Notes: generated by a model from the letters alone, not told the origin. Shown: positions 12,165 through 60,786, counted from the first letter of the stretch. The stretch is DNA of 64,000 nucleotides from an uncultured Candidatus Saccharibacteria bacterium (GCA_964579635.1 CAZOFV010000003.1:2768-66767); one strand, 5' to 3'. Program-made: numbers and translations.

Positions 12165-12187
12165 CATAGTTTTTTGTTGGCCGTTTT

Positions 12188-12841: not shown

Positions 12842-12845
12842 ATAA

Positions 12846-13601: not shown

Positions 13602-13609
13602 TCCCGTAT

Positions 13610-14935: not shown

Positions 14936-15011
14936 TCTGCTATAATGGCCCTTTAGGAACTCTTGATTTTTAACATTGCCGAGGTTTGTGGCTATTTCGT
15001 GGGGGTGAAAA

Positions 15012-15563
15012 ATGAAAGCAATAACATGCTTGTTTTGTGAGCGCATGCGTAAAAATTTTTCGTTTTGTCAGGTTATCGCACTTGCGATACTGATGAATAC
15101 GATACATAAAAGCGCCGTTTTCGTTGGCCGAGGAATGAGGTCTATTGGAAAGGTGCTTGTTAATTGGGGGTCGGTTGAGACACCCCGATGGACGACGGAG
15201 CTTTTCCGCAGGGCTTACATGGTCGATGCGGAAATACATATCAATGGTTTTGTGTACCGCGGGCCACTTTATGCAATGTATCGTGAGTTCGTGAATGGGG
15301 AGAAACTTATCCTCAGCATGAACTGGGTTGCAAGAAGAAGTGAGGTAGGAAAATATTCACCGTATTCTGGGTCGTGCAGTTTCTGCCTTCCTGGTTTCGG
15401 TGAACCACACTTCATCAAGGGTGATAGCGAAGATAATCGCGCTGTCGGCAATGTTTGGTTCTTCTTCGAGGGTGGGTGGGCTGTTCTTTATTTCGGCAAT
15501 CCAAAAGAGCGTTTGTTGTTTCAGGGGGAAAAAGACACTCTTCGGGTTTATTCCCACTACTGA
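15012..15563 (+). CDS. Hypothetical protein (183 aa) in a GC-rich island; coding status uncertain
   Basis: GGGGGTGA RBS-like sequence upstream. ORF ends 3 nt before a strong terminator. Cys pairs at both ends (CLFCERM...FC and CSFCLPGF). No family recognised. Confidence 0.35.
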   Translation: MKAITCLFCERMRKNFSFCQVIALAILMNTIHKSAVFVGRGMRSIGKVLVNWGSVETPRWTTELFRRAYMVDAEIHINGFVYRGPLYAMYREFVNGEKLILSMNWVARRSEVGKYSPYSGSCSFCLPGFGEPHFIKGDSEDNRAVGNVWFFFEGGWAVLYFGNPKERLLFQGEKDTLRVYSHY

Positions 15564-38884: not shown

Positions 38885-39319
38885 TTATTCCTTGTCACTC
38901 GATTTTAATAAAAGCTCACTCGAGGAATATATTTTTGGTAAATCAAGGATTTGGAATTTTATATTATTATCTTTACACGTTGATAGCTCGCTAATTTCTA
39001 AGTTACCATCTTTTCGATCTCCGCTGTTAAAGAAAAATAAATCGTCGTTTTGATACTTACTTCTAAGGTATTTTAATGATTCGCACTGTGTCTTGTCTTT
39101 ATCTATTGAAATAAATACCTCATCAACAGATTTAAGGTTGCTCATTATTTTTGCCCTGTGTTCTTCGTCCATAAATGGCTGTGAGCCCTTAAGGGATACT
39201 TGATGGTCACTGTTTATTATGCAGATAAGCTTATCAGATAGCTTTTTTGCCTCATTTATATATTCAAGGTGTCCATAATGTAGTGGGTTAAAGTACCCAG
39301 AAACTATTCCTATTATCAT
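38885..39319 (-). CDS. Cytidylyltransferase-like nucleotidyltransferase (HldE domain II / glycerol-3-phosphate cytidylyltransferase family)
   Basis: GYFNPLHYGHLEY (HxGH motif). 144 aa. Confidence 0.7.
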   Translation of the reverse strand: MIIGIVSGYFNPLHYGHLEYINEAKKLSDKLICIINSDHQVSLKGSQPFMDEEHRAKIMSNLKSVDEVFISIDKDKTQCESLKYLRSKYQNDDLFFFNSGDRKDGNLEISELSTCKDNNIKFQILDLPKIYSSSELLLKSSDKE

Positions 39320-39361: not shown

Positions 39362-40336
39362 TTATACATTAGAGAATTGGTTTTTTCGCACAATTTGATA
39401 CCCCTTTATCAATTCATTGATAGCATCTTCTATTGGCATTTGTGTAACGAACCCTGTTTTTTCTATTTTTTCATTACTTATTATGTAATTTCTTTTATCT
39501 GGATCTTCGCCGATAGGGGATTCTATAAACACAAACTTAGGTAGTTGTTCTTTTATTTTTTCGCATAACTCAGATTTGCTTAAATTGGTATTTGAAAGGC
39601 CCACATTATATGATTGGTTTTTCATACTTTCAAAATTTTCCATTGCGTGTATAAAAGCAAAAGCAACATCTCTTACGTGTATATAATTTCTTTTGAAATG
39701 TGGCTCAAACAATACAACAGCTCTGTCTGTAACTGCACGATAAACAAAATCGTTTACGAGTAAATCCATGCGCATACGCGGACTAATTCCGCAGACTGTT
39801 GCTAGTCTGAATGTTATGGCATTTCCAGCCTCAAGAAGGGCTTTTTCGGTTTCGACTTTTAGTCTGCCGTAAAGAGAGACCGGCTCAAGTGGACTATTTT
39901 CATCACAATATGCGACACCTTCTTCCATTCGACCATAACCACTATTTGTATTCGGAAAGATTATTTTTTGTTCTGGTGTGCGAAGCTTAAGAAGCATCAA
40001 GATTGCGTCGCGGTTTATGCTGGTAGCACCCAACGGGTCTTGATCACACAAAGGGGCGCCAACTAAACAGGCAAGTGGAATTATGAAATCCTTATCAATA
40101 ATATGTTTTTTAATTAAAGATTCATTCCTCGCATCTCCGCGAATGATTGTGAGTGTTTTATAGTGGCAAACATCAAGAAGGGGTGATTGATTAAAGAGAA
40201 AATTATCTATTACAGTAACTTCATGTCCTGCCTTGAGTAATTCTGGCACTAAAACCGCTCCGATGTATCCCGCCCCTCCTGTTATAAGAATTTTTTTCAT
40301 GTTGTTTATTATATATTCAAATTTATAAGGTTTCAA
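39362..40336 (-). CDS. NAD-dependent epimerase/dehydratase (SDR, GalE-like)
   Basis: ILITGGAGYIGAVL Rossmann motif and YxxxK. Confidence 0.75.
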   Translation of the reverse strand: MKPYKFEYIINNMKKILITGGAGYIGAVLVPELLKAGHEVTVIDNFLFNQSPLLDVCHYKTLTIIRGDARNESLIKKHIIDKDFIIPLACLVGAPLCDQDPLGATSINRDAILMLLKLRTPEQKIIFPNTNSGYGRMEEGVAYCDENSPLEPVSLYGRLKVETEKALLEAGNAITFRLATVCGISPRMRMDLLVNDFVYRAVTDRAVVLFEPHFKRNYIHVRDVAFAFIHAMENFESMKNQSYNVGLSNTNLSKSELCEKIKEQLPKFVFIESPIGEDPDKRNYIISNEKIEKTGFVTQMPIEDAINELIKGYQIVRKNQFSNV

Positions 40337-40349
40337 TTTATGTGTTTAC

Positions 40350-41312
40350 TCATAATATTTCTGGGTAAACAAGCGATGTCCCGCGATCTTCAAATTTAAA
40401 ATCAAGAACATTTTCTTTAAACTCTTCTATAATATTTTTTTTAGTATTACTGTCGCATATTACCATTAAAAATCCGCAACCCCCGCTTCCAAGTAGCTTT
40501 ATTCCGTACGCACCCATACCCATAACTTGTTCTACCATTTTATCTATTTTTTCTGTTGAGATAAGCGGTGATATTTTACGTTTTTCGTTCCATGACTCTA
40601 GTAATAATTCTCCAATTCCCTTGATATCTTCTTTTAAAAAATAATCGTAAGCTTTTAGAGATAGTTCGAGTATCTTTTTTTTATCTTTGTTTTCGTGTGA
40701 TTGTGCTATCTCATTTTGGTTTCTTTGGTCGTTTGTGTAAATCAAAACAATAGAGTCTTCAAACTCACTTTTAAATTTATCTGAAACCGGTAGCGGTTTA
40801 ACAGAAAAATTTCCATTTTTTTCAATTGTTATCGTATTAAAACCACCGTATGCCGCCCATATTTGGTCTTGGATGCCGCCACTTTCTTTTAATATATTTC
40901 TTTCAATATGGATGGCGGTTTTGGCTATATCTTCCTTACTCACGGTTTCTCCCTTCAGATTTTTCATAAGATGTATCATTCCTGCACAAAAAGAAGAAGA
41001 ACCACCAAGACCTGTTCTTGCTGGTACGTCAGCAGAGGAGTTAAAATCTATGTGATTTTGGATATCTTGGTGTTTTAAAACTTCTCTAATAAGTGGATTT
41101 TGAATATCATTAAAAGAAGATACCACTTCGTGTTTAGAGTAGACTATGGAGTGTTCTTTCGGGAGAATTTTTGGTCTATATCTAGCTGATAGCCATATAT
41201 ATTTATCAATTGTGGTTCCTATAATAAACGAACCGTGTTCTTTGTAGAAAGATTCATAGTCAGTTGACCCGCCAAAAAATGATATTCTTAGTGGTGCTTT
41301 TACTATTATCAT
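40350..41312 (-). CDS. GHMP kinase (sugar-phosphate kinase; heptose-7-phosphate kinase HddA-like)
   Basis: PARTGLGGSSSF matches the GHMP ATP-binding motif PxGSGLGSSAA. Confidence 0.7.
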   Translation of the reverse strand: MIIVKAPLRISFFGGSTDYESFYKEHGSFIIGTTIDKYIWLSARYRPKILPKEHSIVYSKHEVVSSFNDIQNPLIREVLKHQDIQNHIDFNSSADVPARTGLGGSSSFCAGMIHLMKNLKGETVSKEDIAKTAIHIERNILKESGGIQDQIWAAYGGFNTITIEKNGNFSVKPLPVSDKFKSEFEDSIVLIYTNDQRNQNEIAQSHENKDKKKILELSLKAYDYFLKEDIKGIGELLLESWNEKRKISPLISTEKIDKMVEQVMGMGAYGIKLLGSGGCGFLMVICDSNTKKNIIEEFKENVLDFKFEDRGTSLVYPEIL

Positions 41313-42496
41313 ATAGAGTTTAACAGCTTACATAGTCTAGGAATATTGCTTTTTTCAAGCCCTGGATAGTTTCCTATATACCACCCGAAATGATGCACGT
41401 GGTTGGTATTGGGGTAATTTAAATATTCATTACCAAAGAGACGTCTTAGATATGGTTGCATAAGCTGGTTTCCTCCACCAGACATTCCTCTTCTGAATTC
41501 AATCATGTTTTCTTTGAGGATTTTTTCTACACTATCTCTCATCTTAAAATCAGCTTTTTTTAAGAGTAGGGTAAAGGCGTAGTTAGAATTTCCTGTTTGA
41601 TTAAAATCAGTAAAGTATTTTTCATTATCGAGATTTTTTAGAAAGATTTTTAAGTTGTCTTTTCTTATTTTGTTGTTTTTATCCAACCTCTTTAGTTGAT
41701 TTATCGCCATTACAGCATTAATTTCACTATTTCTCATGTTGTATGCAGGAGAAGAAAAAATGAAATCAGTATTTAAATCACTATATTTTTTAGCGTAATC
41801 ATTTTTTATTTTTTCGTTAGTACATTCTCTTACCATGCCGTGAGATCTAAACATTCTTGCGTGCTGATATATTTTTTCGTCGTCAGTGCAAATCATGCCA
41901 CCCTCAACCGAAGAAAGGTGGTGGGCATAATAAAATGAAAAATTAGAAACTAAACCAAATGAGCCACATTTCTTCCCTTTGAATGTTGCTCCATGTGATT
42001 CACACACATCTTCAATAAGTATAATTTTTTTCTTTTTACAGATATCGAGTAGCTCTTCTGTAAGGCCATTGTATCCAAGAATGTGGGTTAAAAATATCGC
42101 ACGAGTTTTTGGTGATATTTTCTTTTTTAATTCCTCAACATCTATGGCTAAAGTAGAAAGGTTAATATCACAAAATACCGGGGTAAATCCATTTTGTAAA
42201 ACGGAAGCGATATCAGAAACCCAGGTTAATGGAGGTACTATTATTTCCCCAGTTCCATAGATCTCTTTTAAAGCCAACATCGTAATTTGGTTAGCTGAGC
42301 TACCAGAGTTTACAAAAACACAGTATTTAACACCAAGCCATTTTGCCCATTTTTCCTCAAATTCCCTTACTTTTTTTGATTGCGTAAGAATAGGGACTTC
42401 TTTTTGAGACAGAAAAGAAACAACCTTGTTAACGTCTTCCCGGGAAATGTTGTTAGACATTAATGGCCAATTAGTAATTTTTTTGTGTTTATTCAT
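41309..42496 (-). CDS. DegT/DnrJ/EryC1 family PLP/PMP enzyme with His replacing the catalytic Lys: sugar 3-dehydratase (ColD/E1-like)
   Basis: The DegT fold motif reads SFYYAHHLSSVEGG, where true aminotransferases have SF...K....GEGG. Lys-to-His is the hallmark of ColD and CDP-6-deoxy-4-hexulose-3-dehydrase E1. Confidence 0.7.
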   Translation of the reverse strand: MNKHKKITNWPLMSNNISREDVNKVVSFLSQKEVPILTQSKKVREFEEKWAKWLGVKYCVFVNSGSSANQITMLALKEIYGTGEIIVPPLTWVSDIASVLQNGFTPVFCDINLSTLAIDVEELKKKISPKTRAIFLTHILGYNGLTEELLDICKKKKIILIEDVCESHGATFKGKKCGSFGLVSNFSFYYAHHLSSVEGGMICTDDEKIYQHARMFRSHGMVRECTNEKIKNDYAKKYSDLNTDFIFSSPAYNMRNSEINAVMAINQLKRLDKNNKIRKDNLKIFLKNLDNEKYFTDFNQTGNSNYAFTLLLKKADFKMRDSVEKILKENMIEFRRGMSGGGNQLMQPYLRRLFGNEYLNYPNTNHVHHFGWYIGNYPGLEKSNIPRLCKLLNSI

Positions 42497-42675: not shown

Positions 42676-43704
42676 ATGGAAAAAATAAAAAATAAGAAAG
42701 CGGAAGCAAAATTAAAAAAAATAAAAAGAGTGTTAATTACTGGTATTTCTGGTTCAGGTGGAAGTTATTTAGCCGAATATATAGTTAAAAATCATCCAAA
42801 AATTGAGGTTCATGGTATGGGTCGTTGGCACAGCACTACCGTTACAGATAATCTTCATGAGATTAGAGATAAGGTTATTTTACATGAATGTGATCTTATG
42901 GATTTTAGTTCTGTTTTGTCAGCATTAGAGAAAAGTAAACCAGACGCAATTTTCCATTTGGCGGCTCATGCTAACGTGCGGGCGTCGTTTCAAACACCGC
43001 TATCTGTTTTGAATAATAATATTATGAGTACAGCAAATCTTTTTGAGGCTATTCGTGCCGCAAAAATTAACCCACTTATTCAGCTTTGTAGCAGTTCAGA
43101 AGTTTACGGCATAGTAGATCCTAAATATGTTCCAATTAACGAAAGTACACCAATGTGTCCAACGAGCCCGTACGCTGTTTCAAAGGTTGCACAAGACATG
43201 CTTGGTTATAGTTATTTTAAATCATACAAAATGCCAATAATAAGGACGAGAATGTTTACCTACCTAAATCCTCGTCGAACTGACTTATTTGCAACTTCTT
43301 TTGCTAGGCAGGTAGTCAGGATAGAAATGGGATTACAGAAAGAGTTGGTACATGGGAACCTTGATTCAATAAGAACAATTATCGACGTAAGAGACGCCAT
43401 GCGGGCTTATTGGGACGCTCTTATATATTGTGAGCCAGGGGAGGCCTACAACATAGGAGGAACGACAACAATCTCGGTTGGTGATTTTTTAGACACATTA
43501 ATATCTCTTGCAAAAAAACCAATTCCAACGAGAGTGGACCCTGCTTTGTTACGTCCGTCAGATGTAACCCTTCAAATTCCTGATACAAGTAAATTTTGTA
43601 AAACGACAGGGTGGGAACCAGAATATACATTTAAGGAAAGTATGGCGCACCTTTTAGATCACTGGCGTAAAGAAGTAGCAAAAGAACTAACTGCCACCAA
43701 ATAA
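42676..43704 (+). CDS. NAD(P)-dependent sugar nucleotide dehydratase/reductase (Gmd/Rmd/ColC-like SDR)
   Basis: VLITGISGSGGSYLAEYIV resembles Gmd [14 protein letters not shown]. 342 aa. Confidence 0.65.
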   Translation: MEKIKNKKAEAKLKKIKRVLITGISGSGGSYLAEYIVKNHPKIEVHGMGRWHSTTVTDNLHEIRDKVILHECDLMDFSSVLSALEKSKPDAIFHLAAHANVRASFQTPLSVLNNNIMSTANLFEAIRAAKINPLIQLCSSSEVYGIVDPKYVPINESTPMCPTSPYAVSKVAQDMLGYSYFKSYKMPIIRTRMFTYLNPRRTDLFATSFARQVVRIEMGLQKELVHGNLDSIRTIIDVRDAMRAYWDALIYCEPGEAYNIGGTTTISVGDFLDTLISLAKKPIPTRVDPALLRPSDVTLQIPDTSKFCKTTGWEPEYTFKESMAHLLDHWRKEVAKELTATK

Positions 43705-43837
43705 ATAGCGTTTATGTTTACAAAAAAGCAATCACAGTATTGCTTTTTTTGTAATTTGTGATATAAAATTGAAAGAAAAAGTTCCTTAAATATGGGACTT
43801 TCCCAATTCAAATCAACTACTGATAGCGAGGTTTATC

Positions 43838-45379
43838 GTGGATAAAAAATTAGATGTTTTGTTTGTTAATCCCGATTCGTCCTTTCAGGCTTATCAGGGA
43901 TTGAGTGAAATCTACGCGGCCATTGAGCCACCCACTTGGGCGCTATTGTTGGCCCAGAGTTGTCGTGCAAAGGGGTTTGGAGTCGGCATCCTTGATTGTG
44001 GTGCAGAAAGGCTTAGCTTAGGCGATGCGGTGAAACGTATCGTAGAAGAAAAACCAAGACTCATTTGCTTTGTGATGTACGGGCAAAACCCAAACTCCGG
44101 TACGGCCAGTATGGCCGGCGCTGAACTTTTGGGCAAAGAGCTGAAAGAACTTTACCCCGAAGTTACGTTGTGTTTCGTCGGTTCCCATGTAAGTGCCTTA
44201 CCCAGAGAAGTTTTGGCAATTGATTGTGTAGACCTCGTGCTATTAAACGAAGGGGTTTATGCTTTGCACAACTTACTCCAGACTGACCTTAGCAATTCAT
44301 CGCTCGGGAAAGTAAAGGGTATTGGCTACAAGAAAGATGGGGTTTTGGTCTTGAACCAGCCAGAACGAGTGGTACCGCAAGAAAGAATGGATATTGATTT
44401 ACCGGGGTATGCCTGGGACCTTCTTCCTTGCCGCGAAAGGCCGCTTGATATGTATCGTGCTCATTTTTGGCATGCAGGTTTTGATCACGACAAGCGCACC
44501 CCATTTGCGGCGATTTACACCTCCCTTGGATGCACCTTCAAGTGTGATTTTTGCATGATTAACATCGTTAATCGTGTTGACAACACAGACGGTATATCCG
44601 CCGGCAATTCCCCAGGAATGCGTTTTTGGTCACCCGAGTTTATTCTCGGTGAATTTGAAAAGCTGGCAGCGATGGGTGTTGAGACAGTCAGAATCTCGGA
44701 CGAAATGTTTTTTCTCAACAAGCGTTTTTTTAACCCGCTTCTCGCTGGGGTTGTCGACAGGGATCTGAAGTTTCGCATGTGGGCATACTCAAGGGTGGAC
44801 ACGGTTCAACCTCAGTACTTAGAACTTTTTAGGCGCGCTGGTATTAATTGGCTCGCCTTAGGTGTTGAGGCTGGGAATCAGATCGTAAGACGGGATGCTT
44901 CCAAGGGTTCGTTCAAAGATGTGAACATTCGAGATGTGGTAAATACCGTGCGTTCTGGCGGTATAAACGTCATCGCGAATTACATTTTCGGACTTCCCGA
45001 GGATAGCACGGCAACGATGCAGGAAACACTAGATCTTGCCGTTGAGCTAAATACGGAAATGGTGAATATGTATCCGTGCCAAGCTCTCCCTGGAAGTACG
45101 CTTTATTTTGAGGCTAGGAAAAACGGGATTGCTTTACCGGATTCCTATTCTGGCTACGCGTTTCTTTCTTACGAAAGCCAGCCGTTACCAACCAAGTACT
45201 GCTCTTCGGCAGAAGTACTTCGCTTCCGTGATAATGCGTGGACAACGTATTTTTCCAACCAAGATTACCTCGCCCTTGTGGAGAGAAAATTTGGTGAGGA
45301 AGAACGCAGAAACGTTGAGGCGATGTCGAAGATAAGGTTGTTACGCAAGATTCTTGGGGATCCTGCTCCCGAGAAATGA
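43838..45379 (+). CDS. B12-binding (class B) radical SAM enzyme, GC-rich, probable sugar C-methyltransferase or rearrangement enzyme
   Basis: N-terminal B12-binding-like domain. CTFKCDFC (Cx3Cx2C) radical-SAM cluster motif. GC content is clearly above the flanks. Confidence 0.7.
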   Translation: MDKKLDVLFVNPDSSFQAYQGLSEIYAAIEPPTWALLLAQSCRAKGFGVGILDCGAERLSLGDAVKRIVEEKPRLICFVMYGQNPNSGTASMAGAELLGKELKELYPEVTLCFVGSHVSALPREVLAIDCVDLVLLNEGVYALHNLLQTDLSNSSLGKVKGIGYKKDGVLVLNQPERVVPQERMDIDLPGYAWDLLPCRERPLDMYRAHFWHAGFDHDKRTPFAAIYTSLGCTFKCDFCMINIVNRVDNTDGISAGNSPGMRFWSPEFILGEFEKLAAMGVETVRISDEMFFLNKRFFNPLLAGVVDRDLKFRMWAYSRVDTVQPQYLELFRRAGINWLALGVEAGNQIVRRDASKGSFKDVNIRDVVNTVRSGGINVIANYIFGLPEDSTATMQETLDLAVELNTEMVNMYPCQALPGSTLYFEARKNGIALPDSYSGYAFLSYESQPLPTKYCSSAEVLRFRDNAWTTYFSNQDYLALVERKFGEEERRNVEAMSKIRLLRKILGDPAPEK

Positions 45380-45396
45380 TGTTCCTAGTGATTTGA

Positions 45397-45432
45397 CCAC
45401 GCGTGGCAGTATGCCACGCGTGTTTTTTTTAT
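45397..45432 (+). terminator. Rho-independent terminator after the radical SAM gene
   Basis: CCACGCGTGGC-agtat-GCCACGCGTG hairpin plus T8. Confidence 0.6.
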
Positions 45433-45493
45433 TAATTTATATAAAAAGAACGTATTATTTTTAAATATATACATTATGATATAATCGTAAATT

Positions 45494-46132
45494 ATGGATA
45501 GTAATAAAATATCGTCTGGAAAGGGGAGAGACTTAACCCCAGAAGATTTAATTAACTTTGAGGAAGAAATTGCAGAATTATTTAATTCTGCAAAAATCCG
45601 ATCGCCGATACATCTTTATTATGGAAACGAAAAGGAGATAATAGAAGTATTCCGCGATGTTAAAGAAGACGACTGGGTAATGTGTTCTTGGAGAAGTCAT
45701 TACCAATGTCTTCTTAAAGGTGTTCCAGAAGATAAATTACGCGAAGAGATTCTTGCTAATAGGTCAATATCACTATGTTTCCCTGAACAGAGAATAGTTT
45801 CTTCCGCAATTGTGGGAGGGATTCTTCCGATTGCAGTCGGGGTTGCTATGGGTATCAAAAGAAGTGGTGGGAAAAATAAAGTCCACTGTTTTATGGGAGA
45901 TATGACATCAGAGACTGGTATAGCACACGAATGTATTAAATACGCGACAAATCACGATTTGCCAATACGTTTTATTATTGAAGATAATGGAAAGTCTGTG
46001 TGCACAGAAACACTTAATACATGGAAACAAGATAAACTTACATACGAAGACACTAAAAATCCCATGATAATTTATTATAAATACCAAACTAAATATCCTC
46101 ATGCCGGAGCGGGGGAGCGGGTTCAATTTTAA
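45494..46132 (+). CDS. Minimal TPP-dependent dehydrogenase E1 alpha-like subunit
   Basis: FMGDMTSETGIAHECIKYATNHDLPIRFIIEDNG matches the TPP-binding GDG...E..N...LP..F..ENN motif. Only 212 aa. Confidence 0.6.
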   Translation: MDSNKISSGKGRDLTPEDLINFEEEIAELFNSAKIRSPIHLYYGNEKEIIEVFRDVKEDDWVMCSWRSHYQCLLKGVPEDKLREEILANRSISLCFPEQRIVSSAIVGGILPIAVGVAMGIKRSGGKNKVHCFMGDMTSETGIAHECIKYATNHDLPIRFIIEDNGKSVCTETLNTWKQDKLTYEDTKNPMIIYYKYQTKYPHAGAGERVQF

Positions 46133-46135
46133 TTT

Positions 46136-46672
46136 ATGAAATATTTCGAAGAACTTAGTCGCGCAATGGAAATGATCGCACAAGATGAGAGGTCTTTTTT
46201 TATTGGACAAGCGGTGGCGTGTCCAGGGACTGCGATGACCACAACTCTTAAAAATGTCCCCCGAGAAAAACTTTTAGAACTTCCCGTTGCGGAAGAAATG
46301 CAGATGGGGATGTCTATAGGCCTTGCGTTAGCTGGTCATATCCCAGTTAGTATTTTCCCAAGGTGGAATTTTTTGCTTGTGGGAACAAGTCAGCTGGTTA
46401 ATCATTTGGATAAATTATCTATTATGTCAAACGGAGGTTATAAACCCAAAGTTATTATCCGTACGGGCATTGGGTCTGTTCGCCCGATGCATCCACAGTT
46501 TCAACATGTAGGTGATTACACAGAAGCGTTTAGGCTTATGTGCCCAAACGTTGAAATAATTCGTCTTGAAGAGCCGGAAGATATTTTTCCTGCATATAAA
46601 AAATCTCTTGAAAGAGAGGATGGTAAGAGTACTATTTTAGTTGAGTACGGAGATTACTATAACGAGAAATAG
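46136..46672 (+). CDS. Minimal E1 beta / transketolase pyrimidine-binding-domain-like subunit
   Basis: FIGQAVACPGT...LPVAEEMQMGMSIGLALAGHIPV resembles the transketolase Pyr domain. 178 aa, 4 nt downstream of the alpha-like gene. Confidence 0.55.
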   Translation: MKYFEELSRAMEMIAQDERSFFIGQAVACPGTAMTTTLKNVPREKLLELPVAEEMQMGMSIGLALAGHIPVSIFPRWNFLLVGTSQLVNHLDKLSIMSNGGYKPKVIIRTGIGSVRPMHPQFQHVGDYTEAFRLMCPNVEIIRLEEPEDIFPAYKKSLEREDGKSTILVEYGDYYNEK

Positions 46673-48485: not shown

Positions 48486-49058
48486 ATGTTTATTAAAGAC
48501 AGAATTCAAACATCTATTGATACAAAGAAGCGTCTATTGGATGACGTTTCTATTATTAGTATTGCAGAAGATATAACTAAAGCTATAACCGAAAGTTACG
48601 AAAAAGGGAATAAGACTCTTTGGTGTGGAAATGGGGGAAGTGCTGCCGATGCTCAACACCTGGCCGCTGAACTTTCTGGTAAATATTATTTTGATCGCGA
48701 ACCACTTTCTTCTGAGGCTCTTCATGTTAATACTTCTTATCTTACGGCTGTGGCAAACGATTACTCATACGATATTGTTTACGCAAGGCTAGTAAAAGCC
48801 ACTGGGAAAAAGGGAGATGTTTTAGTTGGGCTTTCTACTTCAGGAAATTCAAAAAATGTTGTTCTTGCGTTAGAAGAGGCTAAAAAAATAGGAATGATCA
48901 CAGTCGGGTTTACTGGAGAGAAACCATCTAAAATGGATTCACTTTGTGACTATTTAATAAAAATACCCTCAGTTGATACTCCACGCATACAGGAATGCCA
49001 CATGTTATTGGGACATTCAATTTGTGAAGGAGTTGAGCAAAATCTTTTTGGTGTGTAA
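48486..49058 (+). CDS. gmhA: D-sedoheptulose-7-phosphate isomerase (SIS domain)
   Basis: LWCGNGGSAADAQHLAAEL and GLSTSGNS, the GmhA signatures. Confidence 0.85.
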   Translation: MFIKDRIQTSIDTKKRLLDDVSIISIAEDITKAITESYEKGNKTLWCGNGGSAADAQHLAAELSGKYYFDREPLSSEALHVNTSYLTAVANDYSYDIVYARLVKATGKKGDVLVGLSTSGNSKNVVLALEEAKKIGMITVGFTGEKPSKMDSLCDYLIKIPSVDTPRIQECHMLLGHSICEGVEQNLFGV

Positions 49059-52864: not shown

Positions 52865-53755
52865 TTAAATTTTTATCCAGCTGTTTGGTATTAAATCGAC
52901 AGTATTATTTTTAGGAGCATTTGCGAACCATTTTTGAGGGGCGATAACTATTTTTTCTTTACTAGGGTTTAACCAGGCACCCCACCAACTGAAACTACTA
53001 TTTGCAATAATATGGTGTTTACACTTGGACATCAATATTAAATCCTCGGCATTTTTATCATTATCGTTTTCCACTAATGTGAAATTGTATTCTAGCCCTT
53101 TAAGTTTCGGTAAAAAATTTTCTATAACCCAGGGATAATTATCTGAAAAAATAAAAAAATTAGGAGAAGGCACCTTGGATGCAATTTGGTTTATAGCTTC
53201 TATGTAATATTCTGCGGAACAGAATCCATGCCAAGGCCTAATGTGTTCCGATGCATATCTTCGCACGTGAATTGATACAGAATTTGTTTCTTCAATTTTT
53301 TTTAATAGCTCTAGGCTATGTGTTGAAAATGGTGCTTTTAGTGTTATTTCTTTTCGTATTTCATCTGCTATGTCTTTAAAATACTTTTCGCTTTGCCAAA
53401 AACCCTCAAAGTACAAAGCTTTTGATGAAAATACTTCTTGGTCGTATGTGAATGTTTTTTCTCCATAGTACCAAGGTTTTATTATTTTTTTTAACCTTAA
53501 TCGATGGTATAAAAAATTAAAAAACGCATTATGTTTACGTAACCAAACGAATCCACCCAAATCTGATTCTTTTGCGATATTTTCCTTTATATTGAATTTC
53601 GATAACCCATATGGATCGGCGGTGTAATAGGTATAAAATGGCGTTACATCCAAAGCAAAATCAATTTTCCTTTTTGACGATAGTGCTCGGGCGAAGGCGT
53701 ATTGGAATATTTGATTACATAAACCACCATTAAGTTTTACAATTAGTTTTTTCAC
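52865..53755 (-). CDS. Glycosyltransferase family 11 (alpha-1,2-fucosyltransferase, FutC/WbsJ-like)
   Basis: LNGGLCNQIFQYAF, SIHVRRYASEH (motif I) and ANSSFSWWGAWL (motif IV). Confidence 0.8.
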   Translation of the reverse strand: MKKLIVKLNGGLCNQIFQYAFARALSSKRKIDFALDVTPFYTYYTADPYGLSKFNIKENIAKESDLGGFVWLRKHNAFFNFLYHRLRLKKIIKPWYYGEKTFTYDQEVFSSKALYFEGFWQSEKYFKDIADEIRKEITLKAPFSTHSLELLKKIEETNSVSIHVRRYASEHIRPWHGFCSAEYYIEAINQIASKVPSPNFFIFSDNYPWVIENFLPKLKGLEYNFTLVENDNDKNAEDLILMSKCKHHIIANSSFSWWGAWLNPSKEKIVIAPQKWFANAPKNNTVDLIPNSWIKI

Positions 53756-54660
53756 GATAGTTTTTTTGTTAATTTTTTAATATATTTTCTAATATTTCTT
53801 TCTTTTGTGTGGATTATAAATGCTCTTGGTAGTCGTATTGTGAGTAATATAATAGCTAATATTTTATATTTAGTTCCATTGAGTGCCTCTATATGTCCTT
53901 TTAAATACGGCCAAAATCTACCAAAAGGGAACATGTGGTTTTTTGGGTTTTTAAATTGCATAGCCGTAACTATTTCATTTTCTTTATGTATTGATAGTTG
54001 GGGACTAGATGCGCCACCAAGCCTTTTTTTAAAGAGTGGTTTTTGGTCAACGACAACACTGAATCTGCTTATAGCCGCTAAACTAAACATATAGTCTTGC
54101 CCCCAAACGTTTCTTTGGGGGTATACTTCCCACACTTTTTTTAATACTTCAGTTTTGAAAAGCGAGTACATTAAATTACATTTGCCGAGGATTTCTGGTT
54201 GAAGAATATATTTTGCTACCTGTAGATATCCGGGTTTCCCGGAAAGGTTTGTCATCCAAATGGCTTCTATTAATGTGCGACCAAAAGAGTCGATTGCGGT
54301 TGTACAGGTTGTGGCTAATCCAAGGTCTTTGTCGTCTTTAAAGTGCCCCAGGCACGTTTCTAGATATTTTTCTTCCCATAAGTCGTCTTGAGCAGCCCAC
54401 ATAAAATACTCCGTGTTTGCCTTGTCGAGAACAAATTTAAAATTAGCAAACATCCCTATATTTTTTTCTTGCTTAAAATAGGTGATTCGTGAATCGTCTT
54501 TTACAAATTCTTTACATATCGTTTCCGTACTATCGGTAGATGAGTCGTCAGATATAAAAATTTTCCAGTCGGTAAAAGTTTGGGCGCGCAAAGAATTAAT
54601 CGCTTCTTTTAGAAATCGTTCACCGTTATATACAGGCATTCCAATAAATATTTTTGTCAT
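53752..54660 (-). CDS. Glycosyltransferase family 2
   Basis: IFIGMPVYNGERFLKEAINSLRAQTFTDWKIFISDDSSTDST. Confidence 0.8.
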   Translation of the reverse strand: MTKIFIGMPVYNGERFLKEAINSLRAQTFTDWKIFISDDSSTDSTETICKEFVKDDSRITYFKQEKNIGMFANFKFVLDKANTEYFMWAAQDDLWEEKYLETCLGHFKDDKDLGLATTCTTAIDSFGRTLIEAIWMTNLSGKPGYLQVAKYILQPEILGKCNLMYSLFKTEVLKKVWEVYPQRNVWGQDYMFSLAAISRFSVVVDQKPLFKKRLGGASSPQLSIHKENEIVTAMQFKNPKNHMFPFGRFWPYLKGHIEALNGTKYKILAIILLTIRLPRAFIIHTKERNIRKYIKKLTKKLS

Positions 54661-55326
54661 CTACTTTATTTTTTTAAGATATCCTCTCGTGTTGAATGTC
54701 GTATCTTTGCCAAACATGTCACATAATTTATTGTCTACTATAAAATCGTCATTTGTTTTCAAGAATTCGTTGATTGCTTTTAGCGGGCCACCGTTAAGTG
54801 GCTTATCTCTTTTAAGTCTAGTTACTATTCCGTCCTCTATTATTAAATATGACCCAACTGGAATTAATTTAGAAAAAGTTTTTATTGTTTCTAAGGTATC
54901 TTTATATAAATGAGAGGCATCATCAATAACAATTATTTTCTTAAATTTATTTACATTATTTAAATCATACTTTTTCCAGCCATCTGTAAAAAATTTTATA
55001 CGAGGGTGTTGTTTTGTTTTTTTATCCACGCGGTCTTCTATATCAATTGTGTGGATTTCACCATGACCAATTGCATCCATTAGGTCAGCAAGATAAAGAG
55101 ATGTTCCTCCAAAATTTGTTCCGATTTCAATAACCAGATCAGGCTTAATTTCAGATAACAGCATTTGGTATATTACATAATCAAAAGGGCACTTAAGGGC
55201 GGGAATTCCTCTGTAAGTTACATTAAAGTGTCCACTATAAATATCCCAAACGCTATATGAACCCATAAGGTATTTTAGGACAGCGTTTCTTTTTGCGTTA
55301 TAAAAATTTTTTATTTTATGTTCCAT
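54661..55326 (-). CDS. CmcI-family class I SAM-dependent methyltransferase (rhamnosyl O-methyltransferase / cephalosporin hydroxylase family)
   Basis: ALKCPFDYVIYQMLL...LVIEIGTNFGGTSLYLADL resembles Pfam CmcI. Adjacent to the wzt ABC ATPase. Confidence 0.65.
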   Translation of the reverse strand: MEHKIKNFYNAKRNAVLKYLMGSYSVWDIYSGHFNVTYRGIPALKCPFDYVIYQMLLSEIKPDLVIEIGTNFGGTSLYLADLMDAIGHGEIHTIDIEDRVDKKTKQHPRIKFFTDGWKKYDLNNVNKFKKIIVIDDASHLYKDTLETIKTFSKLIPVGSYLIIEDGIVTRLKRDKPLNGGPLKAINEFLKTNDDFIVDNKLCDMFGKDTTFNTRGYLKKIK

Positions 55327-56627
55327 TTTAATTTAGGCCTTACAACACCAGGGATGCGTTGGTTGAAATCATTCTTCTTTGCAGTTTCAAGGTTTGCCAT
55401 GACCTGGAAAACAAGCGCATCTTGTTTATAGAAATGTACTTTAAGCGGAAGCATTGTTGAAAGAGCAACCCCAGCTATGTAGGTACCCTCGTTCAATAGG
55501 TTTGCTGGTATCCATGCAATAGCCTTATGTCTTCCAGCAACATCTAATTTTTCATCTAAATCAGAATGGCTAATAAACGCATATTCACCAGCACTAGTGA
55601 ATATATGAATGTTTGGTACAAGATTTTGATTATTTTGCAAAACATCAAATTCCATTTCTATGCCAATTTCCTTGTCTGAAAGAACAAATGATATATCCTC
55701 TCCTTCATTATTTATTATTTTTGCTTTTATGAGTTTAGCGACATCATTGCCAATATTTTTATCAATTAAATCAATTGATGTTGCGTTACTGTTTTTGTCA
55801 TTTAGGTAATGTGCTACGACATCTTTCGTTTCCCCAATTATTTTTACTTTACCTTTTTCTAAAAGAATACATCTTTTGCACAGATTTTGTATTGCCGCCA
55901 TATTGTGGCTTACAAAAAGAATAGTACGTCCTGATTTTTTTGTAACCTCTTCCATTTTCCCTAAACATTTTTTCTGGAATTCAGCATCACCGACGGCGAG
56001 AACCTCATCAACTAAGAGAATATCTGGCTCCATGTGGGCAGCAACAGAGAAGGCGAGGCGAACATACATTCCACTCGAATAGTATTTAACAGGTGTATCA
56101 AGAAATTTATCAATGCCAGCAAAAGCAACTATTTCATCGAATTTTTTAACAATTTCTTTTTTTGTCATTCCCAAGATTGCTCCGTTGAGAAAAATATTTT
56201 CTCTCCCGGTAAGTTCTGGGTGAAAACCAGTACCAACTTCAAGTAGGGAAGCTACCTTACCTTTCATTTTAATTTCTCCTGTGGTTGGTGGAGTTATTCC
56301 TGTGAGAATTTTTAGAAGTGTTGATTTACCAGCACCGTTGTGTCCAATAATTCCAACCACTTCTCCTGGTTCAATATTAAAGCTGACGTCTTTAAGAGCC
56401 CAAAAATCTTCTTTTGTATCAATACCAGCAATTTCTTTTGCTTTCTTTTTTAAGAAAAATAAAGGACGTTTGATAATAGCGGTAAGCACATCCCGTAGCG
56501 CTACATAGTTACCACGGTGATGGTTTATTGTGTATTTTTTCCCTAAATTTTTTACTTCGATAATATTATTATTCATGTTTTTATGCGATATCAGCAAAAT
56601 ACCTTTCCACTTTTTTAAAATAAACAA
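55311..56627 (-). CDS. wzt: Polysaccharide ABC exporter ATP-binding protein (Wzt/TagH-like) with C-terminal carbohydrate-binding extension
   Basis: GIIGHNGAGKSTLLK Walker A, LSSGMYVRLAF signature, about 190 aa extra C-terminal domain. Confidence 0.85.
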   Translation of the reverse strand: MFILKKWKGILLISHKNMNNNIIEVKNLGKKYTINHHRGNYVALRDVLTAIIKRPLFFLKKKAKEIAGIDTKEDFWALKDVSFNIEPGEVVGIIGHNGAGKSTLLKILTGITPPTTGEIKMKGKVASLLEVGTGFHPELTGRENIFLNGAILGMTKKEIVKKFDEIVAFAGIDKFLDTPVKYYSSGMYVRLAFSVAAHMEPDILLVDEVLAVGDAEFQKKCLGKMEEVTKKSGRTILFVSHNMAAIQNLCKRCILLEKGKVKIIGETKDVVAHYLNDKNSNATSIDLIDKNIGNDVAKLIKAKIINNEGEDISFVLSDKEIGIEMEFDVLQNNQNLVPNIHIFTSAGEYAFISHSDLDEKLDVAGRHKAIAWIPANLLNEGTYIAGVALSTMLPLKVHFYKQDALVFQVMANLETAKKNDFNQRIPGVVRPKLKWNIK

Positions 56628-57402
56628 CTCCTATGGCAAGTAGCACTGCACACGCCGTGAATGAAATTCCAATAAGCGTCCAATTGATTGGCGCAGTTCC
56701 TAAAATTCCTGCACGTGCTGACTGAATGACACCCATCATAGGGTTGAAGGCAAGAATCCATGAATATTTTCCGGCGATACTTGCTGGATAAATTACTGGA
56801 GTTAAGAACATTAGTATTTGAATAAAGAACGGTAAAACATAGCGCACGTCGCGATATTTCACATTAATTGCGGCGAGAAATAATCCGCCACCAACCGAAG
56901 CCATAAAGGTTATTGCAAGTAGGAGAGGGAGAATAAATAAACCTGAAAGATGTGGTGTGTAGCCATAATAAATCATCATTCCTATCAGAATTACTGAAGC
57001 TATCGCAAAATCGACAAGTTTTGTTGCAACAGAAGCCAAAGGAAGAATTAGGCGTGGAAAATACACCTTGGTTATTATTGATTGATTACTAATAAGGACA
57101 CTACTTGTTTCTGAAAGTGCACTAGAAAAAAATTGCCAAAAAAGAAGTCCTGTGTACACAAAGATTGGATACGGCACATTATCAGATGGAATTTTTAACA
57201 GTGTCCCAAAGAAAACACTAAAAACAACCATTGTCATGAACGGCTGGAATACTGCCCAGCCAATACCTATGATGGTTTGTTTGTATCGTACTTTAAAATC
57301 ACGCCATACGAAAAAATAAAGAAGCTCCTTATAGTCCCAGAGTTCTTTGAAATCTCTTACGCTTAGAACTTTTTTCGGTTTTATAATTGTTGTAGTAGTC
57401 AT
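56581..57402 (-). CDS. wzm: ABC-2 type polysaccharide exporter permease (Wzm/KpsM-like)
   Basis: Six TM helices and ABC-2 family architecture. Overlaps wzt. Confidence 0.8.
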   Translation of the reverse strand: MTTTTIIKPKKVLSVRDFKELWDYKELLYFFVWRDFKVRYKQTIIGIGWAVFQPFMTMVVFSVFFGTLLKIPSDNVPYPIFVYTGLLFWQFFSSALSETSSVLISNQSIITKVYFPRLILPLASVATKLVDFAIASVILIGMMIYYGYTPHLSGLFILPLLLAITFMASVGGGLFLAAINVKYRDVRYVLPFFIQILMFLTPVIYPASIAGKYSWILAFNPMMGVIQSARAGILGTAPINWTLIGISFTACAVLLAIGVVYFKKVERYFADIA

Positions 57403-57410
57403 TTTTTACT

Positions 57411-58361
57411 TTATGAATTTTTAACTTTATCTAACTTTTGACTATCTTTATACCATTCGTATGTTTTTTTAATTCCATCGTCTATGTTTATTTTATGTTT
57501 CCAGCCAAGTTTATGTAATTTAGAAACGTCTAGGAGTTTTCTTGGTGTGCCATCTGGTTTTGATTTATCCCAAACAATTTTTCCGGAATAACCAGATACT
57601 TTTTTAATTTTTTCAACCAAAGATTTTATAGAAAGATCTGCCCCAGTACCAATATTTACTATCTCCGATTCATTGTAGTTTTGCATAAGGAATAAACAAG
57701 CATCGGCCAGATCGTCTACGTGTAAGAATTCTCTTTTTGGAGATCCTGTTCCCCAAATAACAATTTCTTTATTATTTTTTTCCCGTGCTTCATGAAATCT
57801 TTGAATGAGAGCTGGAAAAACATGGGATGTTACAGGGTCAAAATTATCATTTGGGCCGTAAAGATTTGTTGGCATTACGGAAATAAAGTTTGTGCCGTAT
57901 TGTTTGTTGTATGATTGGCACATAGTTATCCCCGCAATCTTTGCTATAACGTATGCTTTATTTGTTGGTTCTGGTTCGCTGGTTAAGAGGTATTTTTCCT
58001 TGATTGGTTGTGGTGCCATTCTTGGATAAATACAAGAACTTCCTAGAAAAAGTAGTTTTTTTACCTGAGAAATATATGCAGAGTGTATTATATTGTTTTG
58101 TATTATCAAATTTTCATAAATAAAAGATGCTGGATAGGTATTGTTCGCAAGTATTCCGCCAACTTTTGCTGCCGCCAAAAATACATATTCTGGATTTTCT
58201 TTTTTAAAGAATTCAGCAACCTTTTTTTGATCCATTAAATCTAATTCTTTTCGTGTTTTGAGAACTAGGTTTTTGTAACCTTTTTTGTTTAGTAGTCTTA
58301 CGATAGCTGAGCCAACAAGCCCATTGTGTCCAGCTACATAAATTTTTGATGTTTTCTTCAT
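57411..58361 (-). CDS. fcl: GDP-L-fucose synthase (GDP-4-keto-6-deoxy-D-mannose 3,5-epimerase/4-reductase)
   Basis: [15 protein letters not shown], YxxxK region and 316 aa. Confidence 0.85.
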
Positions 58362-58378
58362 GTCCTATAAGTTATAGT

Positions 58379-59482
58379 CTACATTACCATACGTTCTTTT
58401 TCTAAATCCGATTCGGTCATTAATTTAACAAGCTCTTTGAATTTTATCTTTGGTTTCCACCCGAGTTTATTTTTTGCTTTTGAATAATCTCCCTTGAGGA
58501 CATCCACCTCTGCTGGGCGGAAGTATCTTGGGTCGATTTCGATTATTGTTTTTCCAGTTTTTTTATCAATACCTTTTTCGTTTGATCCTTTCCCCTTCCA
58601 TACAATATCCATTCCAAGTATTTTTCCAGCTTCTTCAACAAACTCTCTAACACTGTGTGATTCGTTGGTAGCTAAAATAAAATCATCTGGTTCCTTGTGT
58701 TGCAACATAAGCCACATTCCGTAAACATAATCTTTTGCGTGGCCCCAGTCGCGCATAGCATCAAGGTTTCCAAGATATAATTTTTGTTCTTTGCCGAGCT
58801 TGATACGGGAAAGACCTTGGGTGATTTTTCTTGTAACAAAAGTTTCTCCACGTCTTTCACTTTCGTGGTTAAACAGAATTCCGTTTGAGGCAAACATTCC
58901 GTAGCTCTCACGATAGTTTTTTGTTATCCAATATGCATAAACTTTTGCCACACCGTATGGTGAGCGTGGATGGAAAGGAGTCGTTTCTTTAAGTGGTATT
59001 TCTTTCGCCTTACCAAACATTTCACTTGAAGATGCTTGGTAAAATTTTGTTTTACTTAAACCAGCTTCTCTCATTGCATCAAGAAGACGGATTGTTCCAA
59101 GGCCCGTGACGTCGCCCGTGTATTCTGGAATATCAAAACTAACGCGTACGTGACTCTGTGCTCCAAGGTGATAAATTTCATCTGGTTTTATTTTGTTTAA
59201 AACTCGGTTTAAGTTGCTTGAGTCTGAGAGGTCTCCAAAGTGCAGAAAAAATTTATTATTTGATTTATGTGGGTCGTTATAAATATGATCTATTTTTTGT
59301 GTATTGAAGTTGCTAGCGCGACGAATAAGCCCGTGCACTTCATATCCTTTTTCTAAAAGTAATTCAGCTAAATACGAACCATCTTGTCCGGTGATACCAG
59401 TGATAAGAGCTACTTTATTTTTTGTTGACACTTTATTGCTATTTTTTTTATTTGTTATTTTTTTCATTTTTTTGCCTACCAC
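58379..59482 (-). CDS. gmd: GDP-mannose 4,6-dehydratase
   Basis: [37 protein letters not shown] is the canonical Gmd N-terminus. Confidence 0.92.
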
Positions 59483-59844: not shown

Positions 59845-60786
59845 TTGGTTTATTGGGTATTTAATGATAGAAATAACTTAAATTTAAATTATACTGCAAA
59901 AGATAAAATGGCTTTTTATATGAGGCGACCATGGGGGAGAATGTGGAAACTTGTTAACCATAAAAATTTTTGGGTTAAATTTCTTGTGGTCGGTGGGCAG
60001 ACAAGCCTGCAGAGTCATAATCATCGTACTGAATGGCAACTTGGGGTTTTTAAGGTTACCCCTAAAAATAAACACTACGTGCTTCCGGGCGCATATTTTA
60101 GAATAGTTCGTGGCAAGGGGGTTCAAGGAACCGAGGAAGACGACAAGCATCACGAATGGCATGTTGGTTTTTATAGAGTGAAACCAAAAGAGAAACACCG
60201 CTTGCTTCGTGGTGTCTATCTTGAATTTGTACACGGTAGCGCTGCCGACGAAGGAGATATTGTTCGATATGAAGATGATTACAGTAGAACAGGGGAAGAC
60301 AGCGAACAAATAAACGAGAAAGAAAAAATAGTTGTGGTGAGCGGGGGATTTGACCCTATACACGTAGGTCACTTGGAAATGTTTGAAGAAGCTAAAGCTT
60401 TAGGAGATAAGCTCGTTGTAGTGATTAATTGTGATGCATGGCTCATTCGCAAAAAAGGAAAATATTTCATGAATCAAAATGATCGCGCAACACTTATAAA
60501 AGGAATTAAGCATGTAGACGATGTTTTTATTTTGGAAACTGACCGTGATGATGTTGGTGAGGCAATTGAAAAAATACGCCCACACATTTTTGCTAACGGA
60601 GGTGACAGAAAAGATGAGAACGCAATACCAGAAGCGAAGATTTGTAAAGAACTAGGGGTGGAAATGGTTTTTAATATTGGGAAAAGCGGAAAGGTCCGTT
60701 CAAGCTCAGAACTTTTGGAAGATTATATAAAAAAGGACGGTAAAAAAACTGCACGCGGAGATTTTTCTTGGCAAAAAAACGTATAG
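59845..60786 (+). CDS. Bifunctional cupin (mannose-6-phosphate isomerase type II-like) / cytidylyltransferase-like nucleotidyltransferase; start codon uncertain
   Basis: N-terminal half has VVGGQTSLQSHNHRTEWQ (PMI-type cupin motif) and an internal duplicated motif W-x-[LV]G-[VF]-[FY]-[KR]V-x-PK-x-KH. C-terminal half has VVSGGFDPIHVGHLEMF (HxGH nucleotidyltransferase). Confidence 0.6.
   Translation: MVYWVFNDRNNLNLNYTAKDKMAFYMRRPWGRMWKLVNHKNFWVKFLVVGGQTSLQSHNHRTEWQLGVFKVTPKNKHYVLPGAYFRIVRGKGVQGTEEDDKHHEWHVGFYRVKPKEKHRLLRGVYLEFVHGSAADEGDIVRYEDDYSRTGEDSEQINEKEKIVVVSGGFDPIHVGHLEMFEEAKALGDKLVVVINCDAWLIRKKGKYFMNQNDRATLIKGIKHVDDVFILETDRDDVGEAIEKIRPHIFANGGDRKDENAIPEAKICKELGVEMVFNIGKSGKVRSSSELLEDYIKKDGKKTARGDFSWQKNV

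Follow-up and report, generated by a model that had tools for sequence, protein, structure and literature searches.

What do a GC-rich radical S-adenosylmethionine (SAM) gene and two very short genes resembling the subunits of a 2-oxo-acid dehydrogenase E1 do together inside a sugar cluster? The three genes lie side by side in a 64,000-nucleotide stretch of DNA (here called the window) from an uncultured Candidatus Saccharibacteria bacterium (CAZOFV010000003.1:2768-66767), a Patescibacteria (candidate phyla radiation) genome of about 36% GC. By exact sequence match, GroEL, ribonucleotide reductase and MurC from the window fall into clusters bearing the names Parcubacteria or Paceibacterota. 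An earlier note on this DNA regarded the radical SAM gene as a recent acquisition, and proposed that the three genes make a C-methylated or C-branched deoxysugar. The answer that we favour, with moderate confidence, is that the cassette would turn an activated heptose into a deoxygenated, carbon-extended sugar for a surface polysaccharide, with the radical SAM enzyme and the E1 pair acting late. This reading is drawn from sequence comparison and from analogy with characterised pathways.

Upwards of 80 genomes, spread over many phyla, carry the cassette, which is conserved and has spread horizontally. A set of 80 loci was taken from one-per-species genomes, metagenomic contigs were added to it, and neighbouring genes were scored by tblastn; co-occurrence was counted in the 43 loci in which the radical SAM gene is flanked by 6 kb or more in each direction, a thiamine diphosphate (ThDP, also TPP) enzyme pair being sought within 10 kb. 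A pair of the transketolase/E1 superfamily is found near the radical SAM gene at 42 of these 43 loci, a near-obligate co-occurrence. The pair is a short E1 at 25 loci, a short E1 together with another type at 4, a split transketolase at 7 and a full-length E1 at 6. A ColD-like gene is present at 38 of the 43 loci, and a GHMP kinase, a Cj1427-like short-chain dehydrogenase/reductase (SDR) and a nucleotidyltransferase at most of them. A typical verrucomicrobial operon consists of an L-2-hydroxyglutarate oxidase, an SDR, an NTP-transferase, a NUDIX protein, a GHMP kinase, E1alpha, E1beta, a ColD-like enzyme, the radical SAM protein and a family 2 glycosyltransferase (GT2). The three ThDP architectures interchange while the remainder of the cassette stays constant, and this is strong evidence that the ThDP and radical SAM steps share one pathway. 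All the neighbourhoods that were read gene by gene are sugar clusters, contrary to the placement among non-sugar enzymes that, by the earlier note, would have refuted its reading. The earlier note had the three genes functionally linked within a nucleotide-sugar cluster, and the counts bear this out.

All three genes are intact and have the coordinates and lengths that had been given for them (Table 1), and the two E1-like ones are much shorter than those for dehydrogenase E1. Pfam places E1_dh and Transket_pyr on separate chains, with TPP_enzyme_C marginal at 22 bits. The match of the E1alpha-like protein to PF00676 (E1_dh) is restricted to profile positions 7-171 of 300, and the E1beta-like protein matches PF02779 (Transket_pyr) only, Transketolase_C (PF02780) being absent from the Pfam result. 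Against full-length relatives, the short E1alpha aligns to residues 22-180 of a 318-residue protein and the short E1beta to residues 5-154 of a 348-residue E1beta. Similarly, the AlphaFold2 (AF2) model of E1alpha, with a predicted local distance difference test (pLDDT) score of 78, superposes on about half of E1alpha from pyruvate dehydrogenase (PDH) or branched-chain 2-oxo-acid dehydrogenase (BCKDH), with TM scores of 0.6-0.73 by query and 0.36-0.43 by target. What remains includes the cofactor site. In E1alpha, G135-[D/E]136-M...E-D-N165 aligns to the GEG...NNG of BCKDH E1alpha, with N165 invariant; in E1beta, 'PVAEE' contributes a Glu that lines up with the catalytic, cofactor-activating Glu in the 'ISE' of human E1beta. 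By alignment, both short proteins keep the residues for ThDP binding and activation. Compared with a 2-oxo-acid dehydrogenase E1, then, the pair has the ThDP-Mg motif and the activating Glu, and lacks a full-length alpha chain and a beta chain with Transketolase_C. The parts that are absent serve the lipoyl-E2 partner in dehydrogenase complexes. No lipoyl E2 or E3 genes were found among the 40 window open reading frames (ORFs) scanned with Pfam (24.9-62.3 kb) or in related cassettes.

The short lengths are characteristic of a family. The best 120 homologues of the 212-residue E1alpha have 199-239 residues and 71-100% identity. An exhaustive search, with a limit of E<=1e-30, gave 118 clusters at the 50% identity level; the approximately 150 best matches, which include all 118, are mostly of about 200-250 residues, the remainder being shorter partials and a few longer fusions. 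Comparison with a syntenic relative (L087) gave dN/dS values of 0.046 (E1alpha) and 0.045 (radical SAM gene), within a range of 0.03-0.08 for the block. By these measures the short E1 pair is a conserved family under purifying selection, and the possibility raised at the outset, that the two ORFs are frameshifted remnants of a PDH gene, was rejected. A natural fusion of a short E1alpha with a Transket_pyr domain (P0330, 408 residues) argues that the alpha and beta chains work as one enzyme.

It is worth adding some observations on the short E1alpha family. Residues 195-212 form an invariant tail, Y-x-Y-x3-Y-P-H-A-G-A-G-x-R-V-Q-F, which has no equivalent in full-length E1alpha and is modelled by AF2 with pLDDT below 50. 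The tail may complete the active site or a subunit interface. One member (P0386, 552 residues) is fused to an APH-family kinase, and the fusion connects the ThDP step with a kinase step. Two others (P0323, 550 residues, and P0333, 553 residues) carry inteins (Intein_splicing/HINT, LAGLIDADG), inserted in P0323 near the ThDP-binding region. Inteins are usually placed in highly conserved active-site regions.

The neighbouring genes provide clues as to the substrate. The Cj1427-like, 4,6-dehydratase-like and ColD-like genes are all within 6 kb of the E1 pair, and a Campylobacter-type set for GDP-heptose (homologues of GmhA, HddA and the Cj1427-type and ColD-type enzymes) is found in one locus. 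The PDB matches of the SDR and the kinase (Table 1) are entries for GDP-D-glycero-D-manno-heptose 4,6-dehydratase (7US5) and heptose 7-phosphate kinase (4N3O) respectively; the 4,6-dehydratase-like SDR is found in this cassette sub-lineage. RfaE domain II, the best specific NCBIfam match of the 144-residue nucleotidyltransferase, is a heptose-1-phosphate adenylyltransferase. In the DegT-family protein, 'AHH' aligns to the 'SHH' of ColD, and it is the first His that is changed in the H188N mutant entry 3B8X; together these indicate that His has replaced the Schiff-base Lys, as in the ColD type. The C. jejuni C3-dehydratase accepts both 4-keto-heptose and 6-deoxy-4-keto-heptose (PMC10440746, PMC10680097). 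Given that the neighbours match the Campylobacter heptose enzymes, the cassette should deliver a nucleoside diphosphate (NDP)-linked 3-deoxy- or 3,6-dideoxy-4-keto-heptose. The most likely substrate, not recognised in the earlier note, is a heptose.

Independent support for chemistry of the Cj1427 type comes from another cassette. Cj1427 re-oxidises its bound NADH with 2-oxoglutarate, producing L-2-hydroxyglutarate (PMC10680097). In a Limisphaerales metagenome-assembled genome (MAG), the first cassette gene, which adjoins the Cj1427-like SDR, is an L-2-hydroxyglutarate oxidase (L025:3210-4256; NF008726, 448.8 bits, cutoff 299), and would recycle this product of the Cj1427-type ping-pong dehydrogenases. 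Homologues of the oxidase are found at 17 of 86 related loci, and none in the window.

The comparison with the capsular GDP-heptose pathway of C. jejuni extends over most of the steps: homologues of its isomerase, kinase, C4-dehydrogenase, 4,6-dehydratase and C3-dehydratase (the pyridoxal/pyridoxamine phosphate (PLP/PMP) enzyme of HS:5) are all in the window. There are two differences. The nucleotidyltransferase has a cytidylyltransferase fold in the window, whereas that of the C. jejuni pathway is HddC-like. And whereas C. jejuni does no more than epimerise and reduce the keto intermediate, the window adds the ThDP pair and the class-B radical SAM enzyme, which Campylobacter is without.

The proposed route runs as follows. 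By homology, sedoheptulose-7-phosphate would pass through the GmhA-like isomerase, the HddA-like kinase, dephosphorylation at C7 and nucleotidylation to give NDP-D-glycero-D-manno-heptose. The Cj1427-type dehydrogenase or the 4,6-dehydratase-like enzyme would then make the 4-keto sugar, from which the ColD-type enzyme would remove the 3-OH, leaving NDP-3-deoxy-4-keto-heptose or the 3,6-dideoxy form; the same sequence of oxidation and deoxygenation is carried out by C. jejuni enzymes (PMC10440746, PMC10680097). For the next two steps we infer that the short E1 pair (PP and Pyr domains, without the lipoyl-E2 parts) would decarboxylate pyruvate and add two carbons to the C4 ketone, and that, least certain of all, the class-B radical SAM enzyme may form a further C-C bond on this intermediate, either by C-methylation at an unactivated carbon or by closing a ring. 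The product sugar would enter a polysaccharide exported by the Wzm/Wzt ATP-binding cassette (ABC) transporter.

The two-carbon addition has two kinds of precedent. YerE and ErwE take a 3,6-dideoxy-4-keto nucleotide sugar as acceptor and add an acyl group at its C4 ketone (PMC9306805), and the PDH-like E1alpha/beta pairs AviB1/B2 and Pau11/12 (325, 345 residues) represent the other two-carbon branching route (PMC4425429). These two precedents are the reason for proposing that the short E1 would add its two-carbon unit to C4.

The window resembles the second kind in having an E1alpha/beta-like pair beside NDP-4-keto-deoxysugar enzymes, and some related cassettes likewise have full-length pairs (318 + 348 residues), as do the pathways for the actinomycete antibiotics avilamycin (AviB1/B2) and paulomycin (Pau11/Pau12). 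The window pair itself is of 212 + 178 residues as against 325 + 345 for Pau11/Pau12: its alpha chain is without the C-terminal half and has a YPHAGAGxRVQF tail of its own, and its beta chain is without Transketolase_C. The substrates probably differ also: in the window, probably a heptose of primary glycan synthesis; for AviB1/B2 and Pau11/12, a deoxythymidine diphosphate (dTDP)-hexose of a secondary metabolite. The earlier note suggested two-carbon transfer by short E1-like pairs; the published cases are full-length pairs. A branched or methylated deoxysugar agrees with the deoxygenated, extra-carbon context, C-methylation by the radical SAM enzyme being one of several options.

YerE is a single-chain acetolactate-synthase-like enzyme, and the window pair does not match its architecture (TPP_enzyme_N/M/C on a single chain). 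The logic of the pathways for yersiniose, erwiniose and caryophyllose, which use YerE/ErwE, is nevertheless the same, consisting of a 4-keto sugar, deoxygenation at C3, ThDP-dependent acyl addition at C4 and then reduction (PMC9306805); in the window the C3 deoxygenation uses a ColD-type enzyme. YerE is a TPP-dependent flavoprotein (PMC4425429), whereas the window enzyme is a two-subunit member of the E1/transketolase family.

The radical SAM protein matches PF02310 (B12-binding) at 41.7 bits (cutoff 32.1) over residues 29-145 and PF04055 (Radical_SAM) at 58 bits (cutoff 29.5). The CTFKCDFC motif described earlier is in place as C232-T-F-K-C236-D-F-C239, and its three cysteines (CxxxCxxC) are invariant across 28 homologues, as are a further four, C42, C77, C112 and C414. 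Homologues in the best 120 have 70-99% identity and span Patescibacteria, Verrucomicrobiota and others, all under generic or misleading database names such as "BchE-like cyclase" and "YgiQ". The protein misses every NCBIfam curated cutoff tested, including those for HpnJ (the top match, 101.2 bits against 577.6, E 6e-29), BchE (80.2 against 481, E 1.5e-22), PhpK (71.8 against 600, E 3.7e-20), AprD4 (49.4 against 500), KedN5/GenK-type models (KedN5, 40.9 against 700), HpnR and MgmA. It shares the N-terminal B12-type Rossmann domain and CxxxCxxC core with class-B enzymes whose substrates are sugars or are linked to nucleotides (GenK, Fom3, AprD4, OxsB, HpnJ), and is unlike them in its own invariant cysteines, its very strong conservation across phyla and its 12-18% identity to solved members. 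In a plasmid collection, the search found only homologues of 38-41% identity (Azospirillum, Solidesulfovibrio). The gene is followed by the GC-rich terminator that the earlier note described and preceded by an AT-rich hairpin (Table 1), and it therefore resembles a separate transcription unit.

A number of points weigh against the proposed pathway. Literature searches found no paper on the cassette and no characterised member. In view of the swaps between E1 and transketolase, the donor for the ThDP enzyme could be either pyruvate, as the source of an acetyl unit, or a ketose, as that of a glycolyl unit. The nucleotide carrier enzyme varies by lineage: a cytidylyltransferase fold in the window is replaced by an HddC/ManC-like NTP_transferase in other phyla, as in the verrucomicrobial cassettes. 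PDB 6VO6, the match of the C4 dehydrogenase, is an entry presumed to be Cj1427. The radical SAM protein is, by domain matches and model, a member of the class-B (B12-binding domain) superfamily, and its cobalamin binding is putative; AprD4 shows that the B12-type class-B fold can be without cobalamin, and the four extra invariant cysteines could hold a second cluster instead. Its AF2 model is of moderate quality (pLDDT 69.8), and the fold neighbours (12-18% identity) are a mixture of methylases (TsrM, MgmA, CysS) and non-methylases (AprD4, OxsB), for which reason assigning a reaction from the model was rejected. Finally, on the Azospirillum plasmid AZO_p6 (A. lipoferum 4B; L086, locus 10690-15382), a radical SAM homologue of 40% identity stands between a GDP-fucose-synthase-like gene and a GHMP kinase gene, the latter followed by NUDIX, and genes for ThDP and ColD enzymes are absent. 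A homologue without a ThDP enzyme means that the radical step may not need the branch, and suggests that radical SAM plus kinase is an older core, possibly with another product.

The alternative that survives best, although we think it rather unlikely, keeps the branched intermediate and has the radical SAM enzyme as a non-methylase, carrying out a rearrangement or ring closure to give a carbocycle, as has been suggested for HpnJ or calditol synthase. The best NCBIfam matches, HpnJ and BchE, are ring-forming, non-methylating class-B enzymes, the fold neighbours include OxsB and AprD4, and radical SAM enzymes have been implicated in the conversion of a sugar to a cyclopentane (PMC9092360). Yet all the family scores are far below their cutoffs, and the methylases PhpK, MgmA, TsrM and CysS score similarly. 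Most characterised class-B radical SAM enzymes are methylases.

Less probable again is that the ThDP enzyme extends the chain instead of branching it at C4. Here the radical SAM enzyme (acting like AprD4) or an oxidase would make an aldehyde or ketone at C6-C7, and a two-carbon addition in the manner of DXS would lead to a linear nonose. This would suit the normal preference of E1, DXS and transketolase for aldehydes, the replacement of the short E1 by split transketolase at 7 of the 43 loci, and the presence of AprD4, a sugar diol dehydratase, among both the closest structures and the NCBIfam matches. It would also suit the frequent position of the radical SAM gene next to a kinase gene and the distant homologue that lacks ThDP genes. 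Set against it, the near-constant ColD-type enzyme yields the 3-deoxy-4-keto acceptor of the known branching enzymes, and no precedent was found for chain extension on an NDP-heptose.

If the branch and the ring closure are combined, the cassette would make a previously undescribed sugar of nine or ten carbons, for which a specific product can be drawn, and we regard it as improbable though worth stating: a caryose-like 4,8-cyclo-3,9-dideoxy-nonose, in which two carbons are added at C4, the radical SAM enzyme abstracts H at C7, and a cyclopentane forms onto the new carbonyl. With the same low confidence, such a cyclic reading would cover the traits of caryose, these being the 3-deoxy position (ColD), the quaternary C4-OH, the tertiary alcohol with a methyl group at C8, and nine carbons, two more than in a heptose. 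How caryose is made is reported to be unknown (PMC9092360). A search from a Burkholderiales copy gave no named Burkholderia or Trinickia caryophylli homologues in the best 120 matches, which held only Piscinibacter, Rubrivivax, Rhizobacter and MAGs; this neither supports nor refutes a link to caryose.

A very unlikely alternative takes the short E1 as a free 2-oxo-acid decarboxylase of the sulfopyruvate/phosphonopyruvate type, which would supply a small aldehyde or an acyl group to decorate something other than a sugar; the decoration might be a phosphonate, with a PhpK/Fom3-like radical SAM enzyme as its methylase. Short two-subunit ThDP decarboxylases do exist, and a cytidylyltransferase, a ThDP decarboxylase and a B12 radical SAM enzyme occur together in fosfomycin biosynthesis; the PhpK-family P-methyltransferase model is, as given above, among the matches. 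However, no phosphoenolpyruvate (PEP) mutase was found in the 40 scanned window ORFs or in annotated related loci, the DegT-family partner is a His-type dehydratase and not an aminotransferase, and the short pair belongs to the E1/transketolase family, not to the TPP_enzyme_N/C decarboxylases. The phosphonate route was rejected on the first two of these grounds. Lastly, an accidental arrangement, with the E1 ORFs as a decayed PDH operon and the radical SAM gene as an unrelated recent insertion, would account for the short ORFs and the GC contrast, but it is almost certainly wrong given the short lengths kept in hundreds of sequences of 71-100% identity, the dN/dS of about 0.05, the intact cofactor residues, the linkage at 42 of 43 loci across phyla, and the same order and GC contrast in L087 at saturated dS.

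The composition of the radical SAM gene is distinct from that of its neighbours, as the earlier note had said. Its GC content is 0.473 and its third-position value (GC3) 0.482, whereas GC3 over the window averages 0.29 (standard deviation 0.06), and GC at the first and second positions (GC1, GC2) is raised too; E1alpha (GC3 0.28) and E1beta (0.35) look native. In most other hosts, the GC3 of the radical SAM gene tracks its neighbours over a range of 0.18-0.97 (for example 0.18 in SAR116 and 0.95 in Piscinibacter), so the protein sequence is not forcing the anomaly in the window, and that explanation was rejected. The recent acquisition that had been proposed is not supported. L087, from a 36.5% GC genome, shares the gene order of the window and shows the same GC contrast. 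Fourfold-site GC is 0.45-0.51 for the radical SAM gene against 0.16-0.34 for its neighbours, the figures for L087 being 0.45 and 0.23-0.27; dS between L087 and the window is 1.3-1.9, saturated in every gene of the block. The anomaly is therefore older than their split, or maintained, and not the mark of a recent event. The GC-rich allele would be old and partly ameliorated, or maintained, an older foreign origin being possible. Other patescibacterial copies of the radical SAM gene (L005, L088) are also richer in GC3 than their neighbours. Two further ORFs in the window have high GC3 and no Pfam match, at 15012-15563 (+, 0.48) and 323-745 (+, 0.57); they may be foreign or non-genes.

What is new in this cassette is the minimal E1 architecture and the uncharacterised family of class-B radical SAM proteins; the 4-oxidation of a heptose, the 3-deoxygenation and the logic of ThDP branching are known. 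If the proposed pathway is right, a large radical SAM family (60-99% identical across distant phyla) gains a testable substrate, an NDP-3-deoxy-4-keto-heptose with a ThDP-derived branch. The pair would be the smallest known ThDP enzyme of the E1/transketolase family, its PP and Pyr domains each on a chain of about 200 residues, and the lipoyl-E2 parts would be dispensable for carboligation. The pathway would also predict a new higher-carbon surface sugar in poorly studied bacteria, including Patescibacteria, whose glycans are essentially unknown and whose episymbiotic lifestyle needs cell-surface contacts. Should the caryose-like product be correct, the short E1 and the radical SAM enzyme would constitute a new route to carbocyclic sugars in Verrucomicrobiota, Planctomycetota, Patescibacteria, Acidobacteriota and Proteobacteria. 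The early substrates can be made with published Campylobacter enzymes, and the pathway is therefore directly testable.

Table 1 Positions of the features discussed, counted from the first nucleotide of the window
Feature	Position	Strand	Description
Cytidylyltransferase-fold sugar-1-phosphate nucleotidyltransferase	38885-39319	-	144 aa; PF01467; nearest NCBIfam RfaE domain II, E 1.4e-15
Cj1427-type NDP-heptose C4 dehydrogenase	39362-40336	-	324 aa; PDB 6VO6, E 1.7e-110, end-to-end alignment
HddA-like GHMP sugar kinase	40350-41312	-	320 aa; NF049969 HddA, E 4e-41; 4N3O, E 6.8e-32
ColD-type pyridoxamine phosphate-dependent NDP-4-keto-sugar 3-dehydratase	41309-42496	-	395 aa; best PDB ColD 2GMS, E 3.6e-56
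GDP-heptose 4,6-dehydratase-like SDR	42676-43704	+	342 aa; best PDB 7US5, E 1.8e-58; shared CSSSEVYG
AT-rich hairpin 5' of radical SAM gene	~43722-43749		Only 2 G-C pairs; missed by terminator scan
Radical SAM gene	43838-45379	+	GTG start, 513 aa; class-B fold with N-terminal B12-binding-like domain
GC-rich intrinsic terminator 3' of radical SAM gene	45398-45430	+	11-bp stem, 8 G-C pairs, 3-nt loop, T8 tail
Short E1alpha gene	45494-46132	+	212 aa; ThDP diphosphate-binding (PP) domain only
Short E1beta gene	46136-46672	+	178 aa; ThDP pyrimidine-binding (Pyr) domain only
GmhA-like sedoheptulose-7-phosphate isomerase (SIS)	48486-49058	+	190 aa; TIGR00441 188.5 bits, E 7e-56
GT11 fucosyltransferase-like	52865-53755	-	
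Rhamnosyl-O-methyltransferase/CmcI-like	54661-55326	-	
Wzt with C-terminal carbohydrate-binding domain	55311-56627	-	
Wzm	56581-57402	-	
Fucose-synthase-like	57411-58361	-	
GMD	58379-59482	-	

Two further observations can be added. In another patescibacterial locus, L088, genes for an SIS protein, a phosphatase and a nucleotidyltransferase are found within the cassette. The phosphatase gene (L088:7354-7926) is directly 5' of the radical SAM gene and codes for a histidine-phosphatase-family protein nearest to CobC, an alpha-ribazole phosphatase (116.8 bits, cutoff 162.9). Its role could be that of a heptose-bisphosphate phosphatase in place of GmhB, or could lie in cobamide salvage for the enzyme with the B12 domain. 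In the window, a 313-residue protein at 59845-60786 (+) has another cytidylyltransferase-like domain at residues 166-254, with 41% identity to the 144-residue enzyme.

The region from about 24.9 to 59.5 kb of the window is one large glycan locus. It contains glycosyltransferases of families GT1, GT2, GT4 and GT11, several methyltransferases, an asparagine-synthase-like amidotransferase, GMD, a fucose-synthase-like gene and the Wzm/Wzt ABC exporter. The exporter is part of a separate 6-deoxyhexose and export module at 52865-59482 (-), which by its gene content indicates an ABC-transporter-dependent glycan, probably with a methyl cap, in this patescibacterium.

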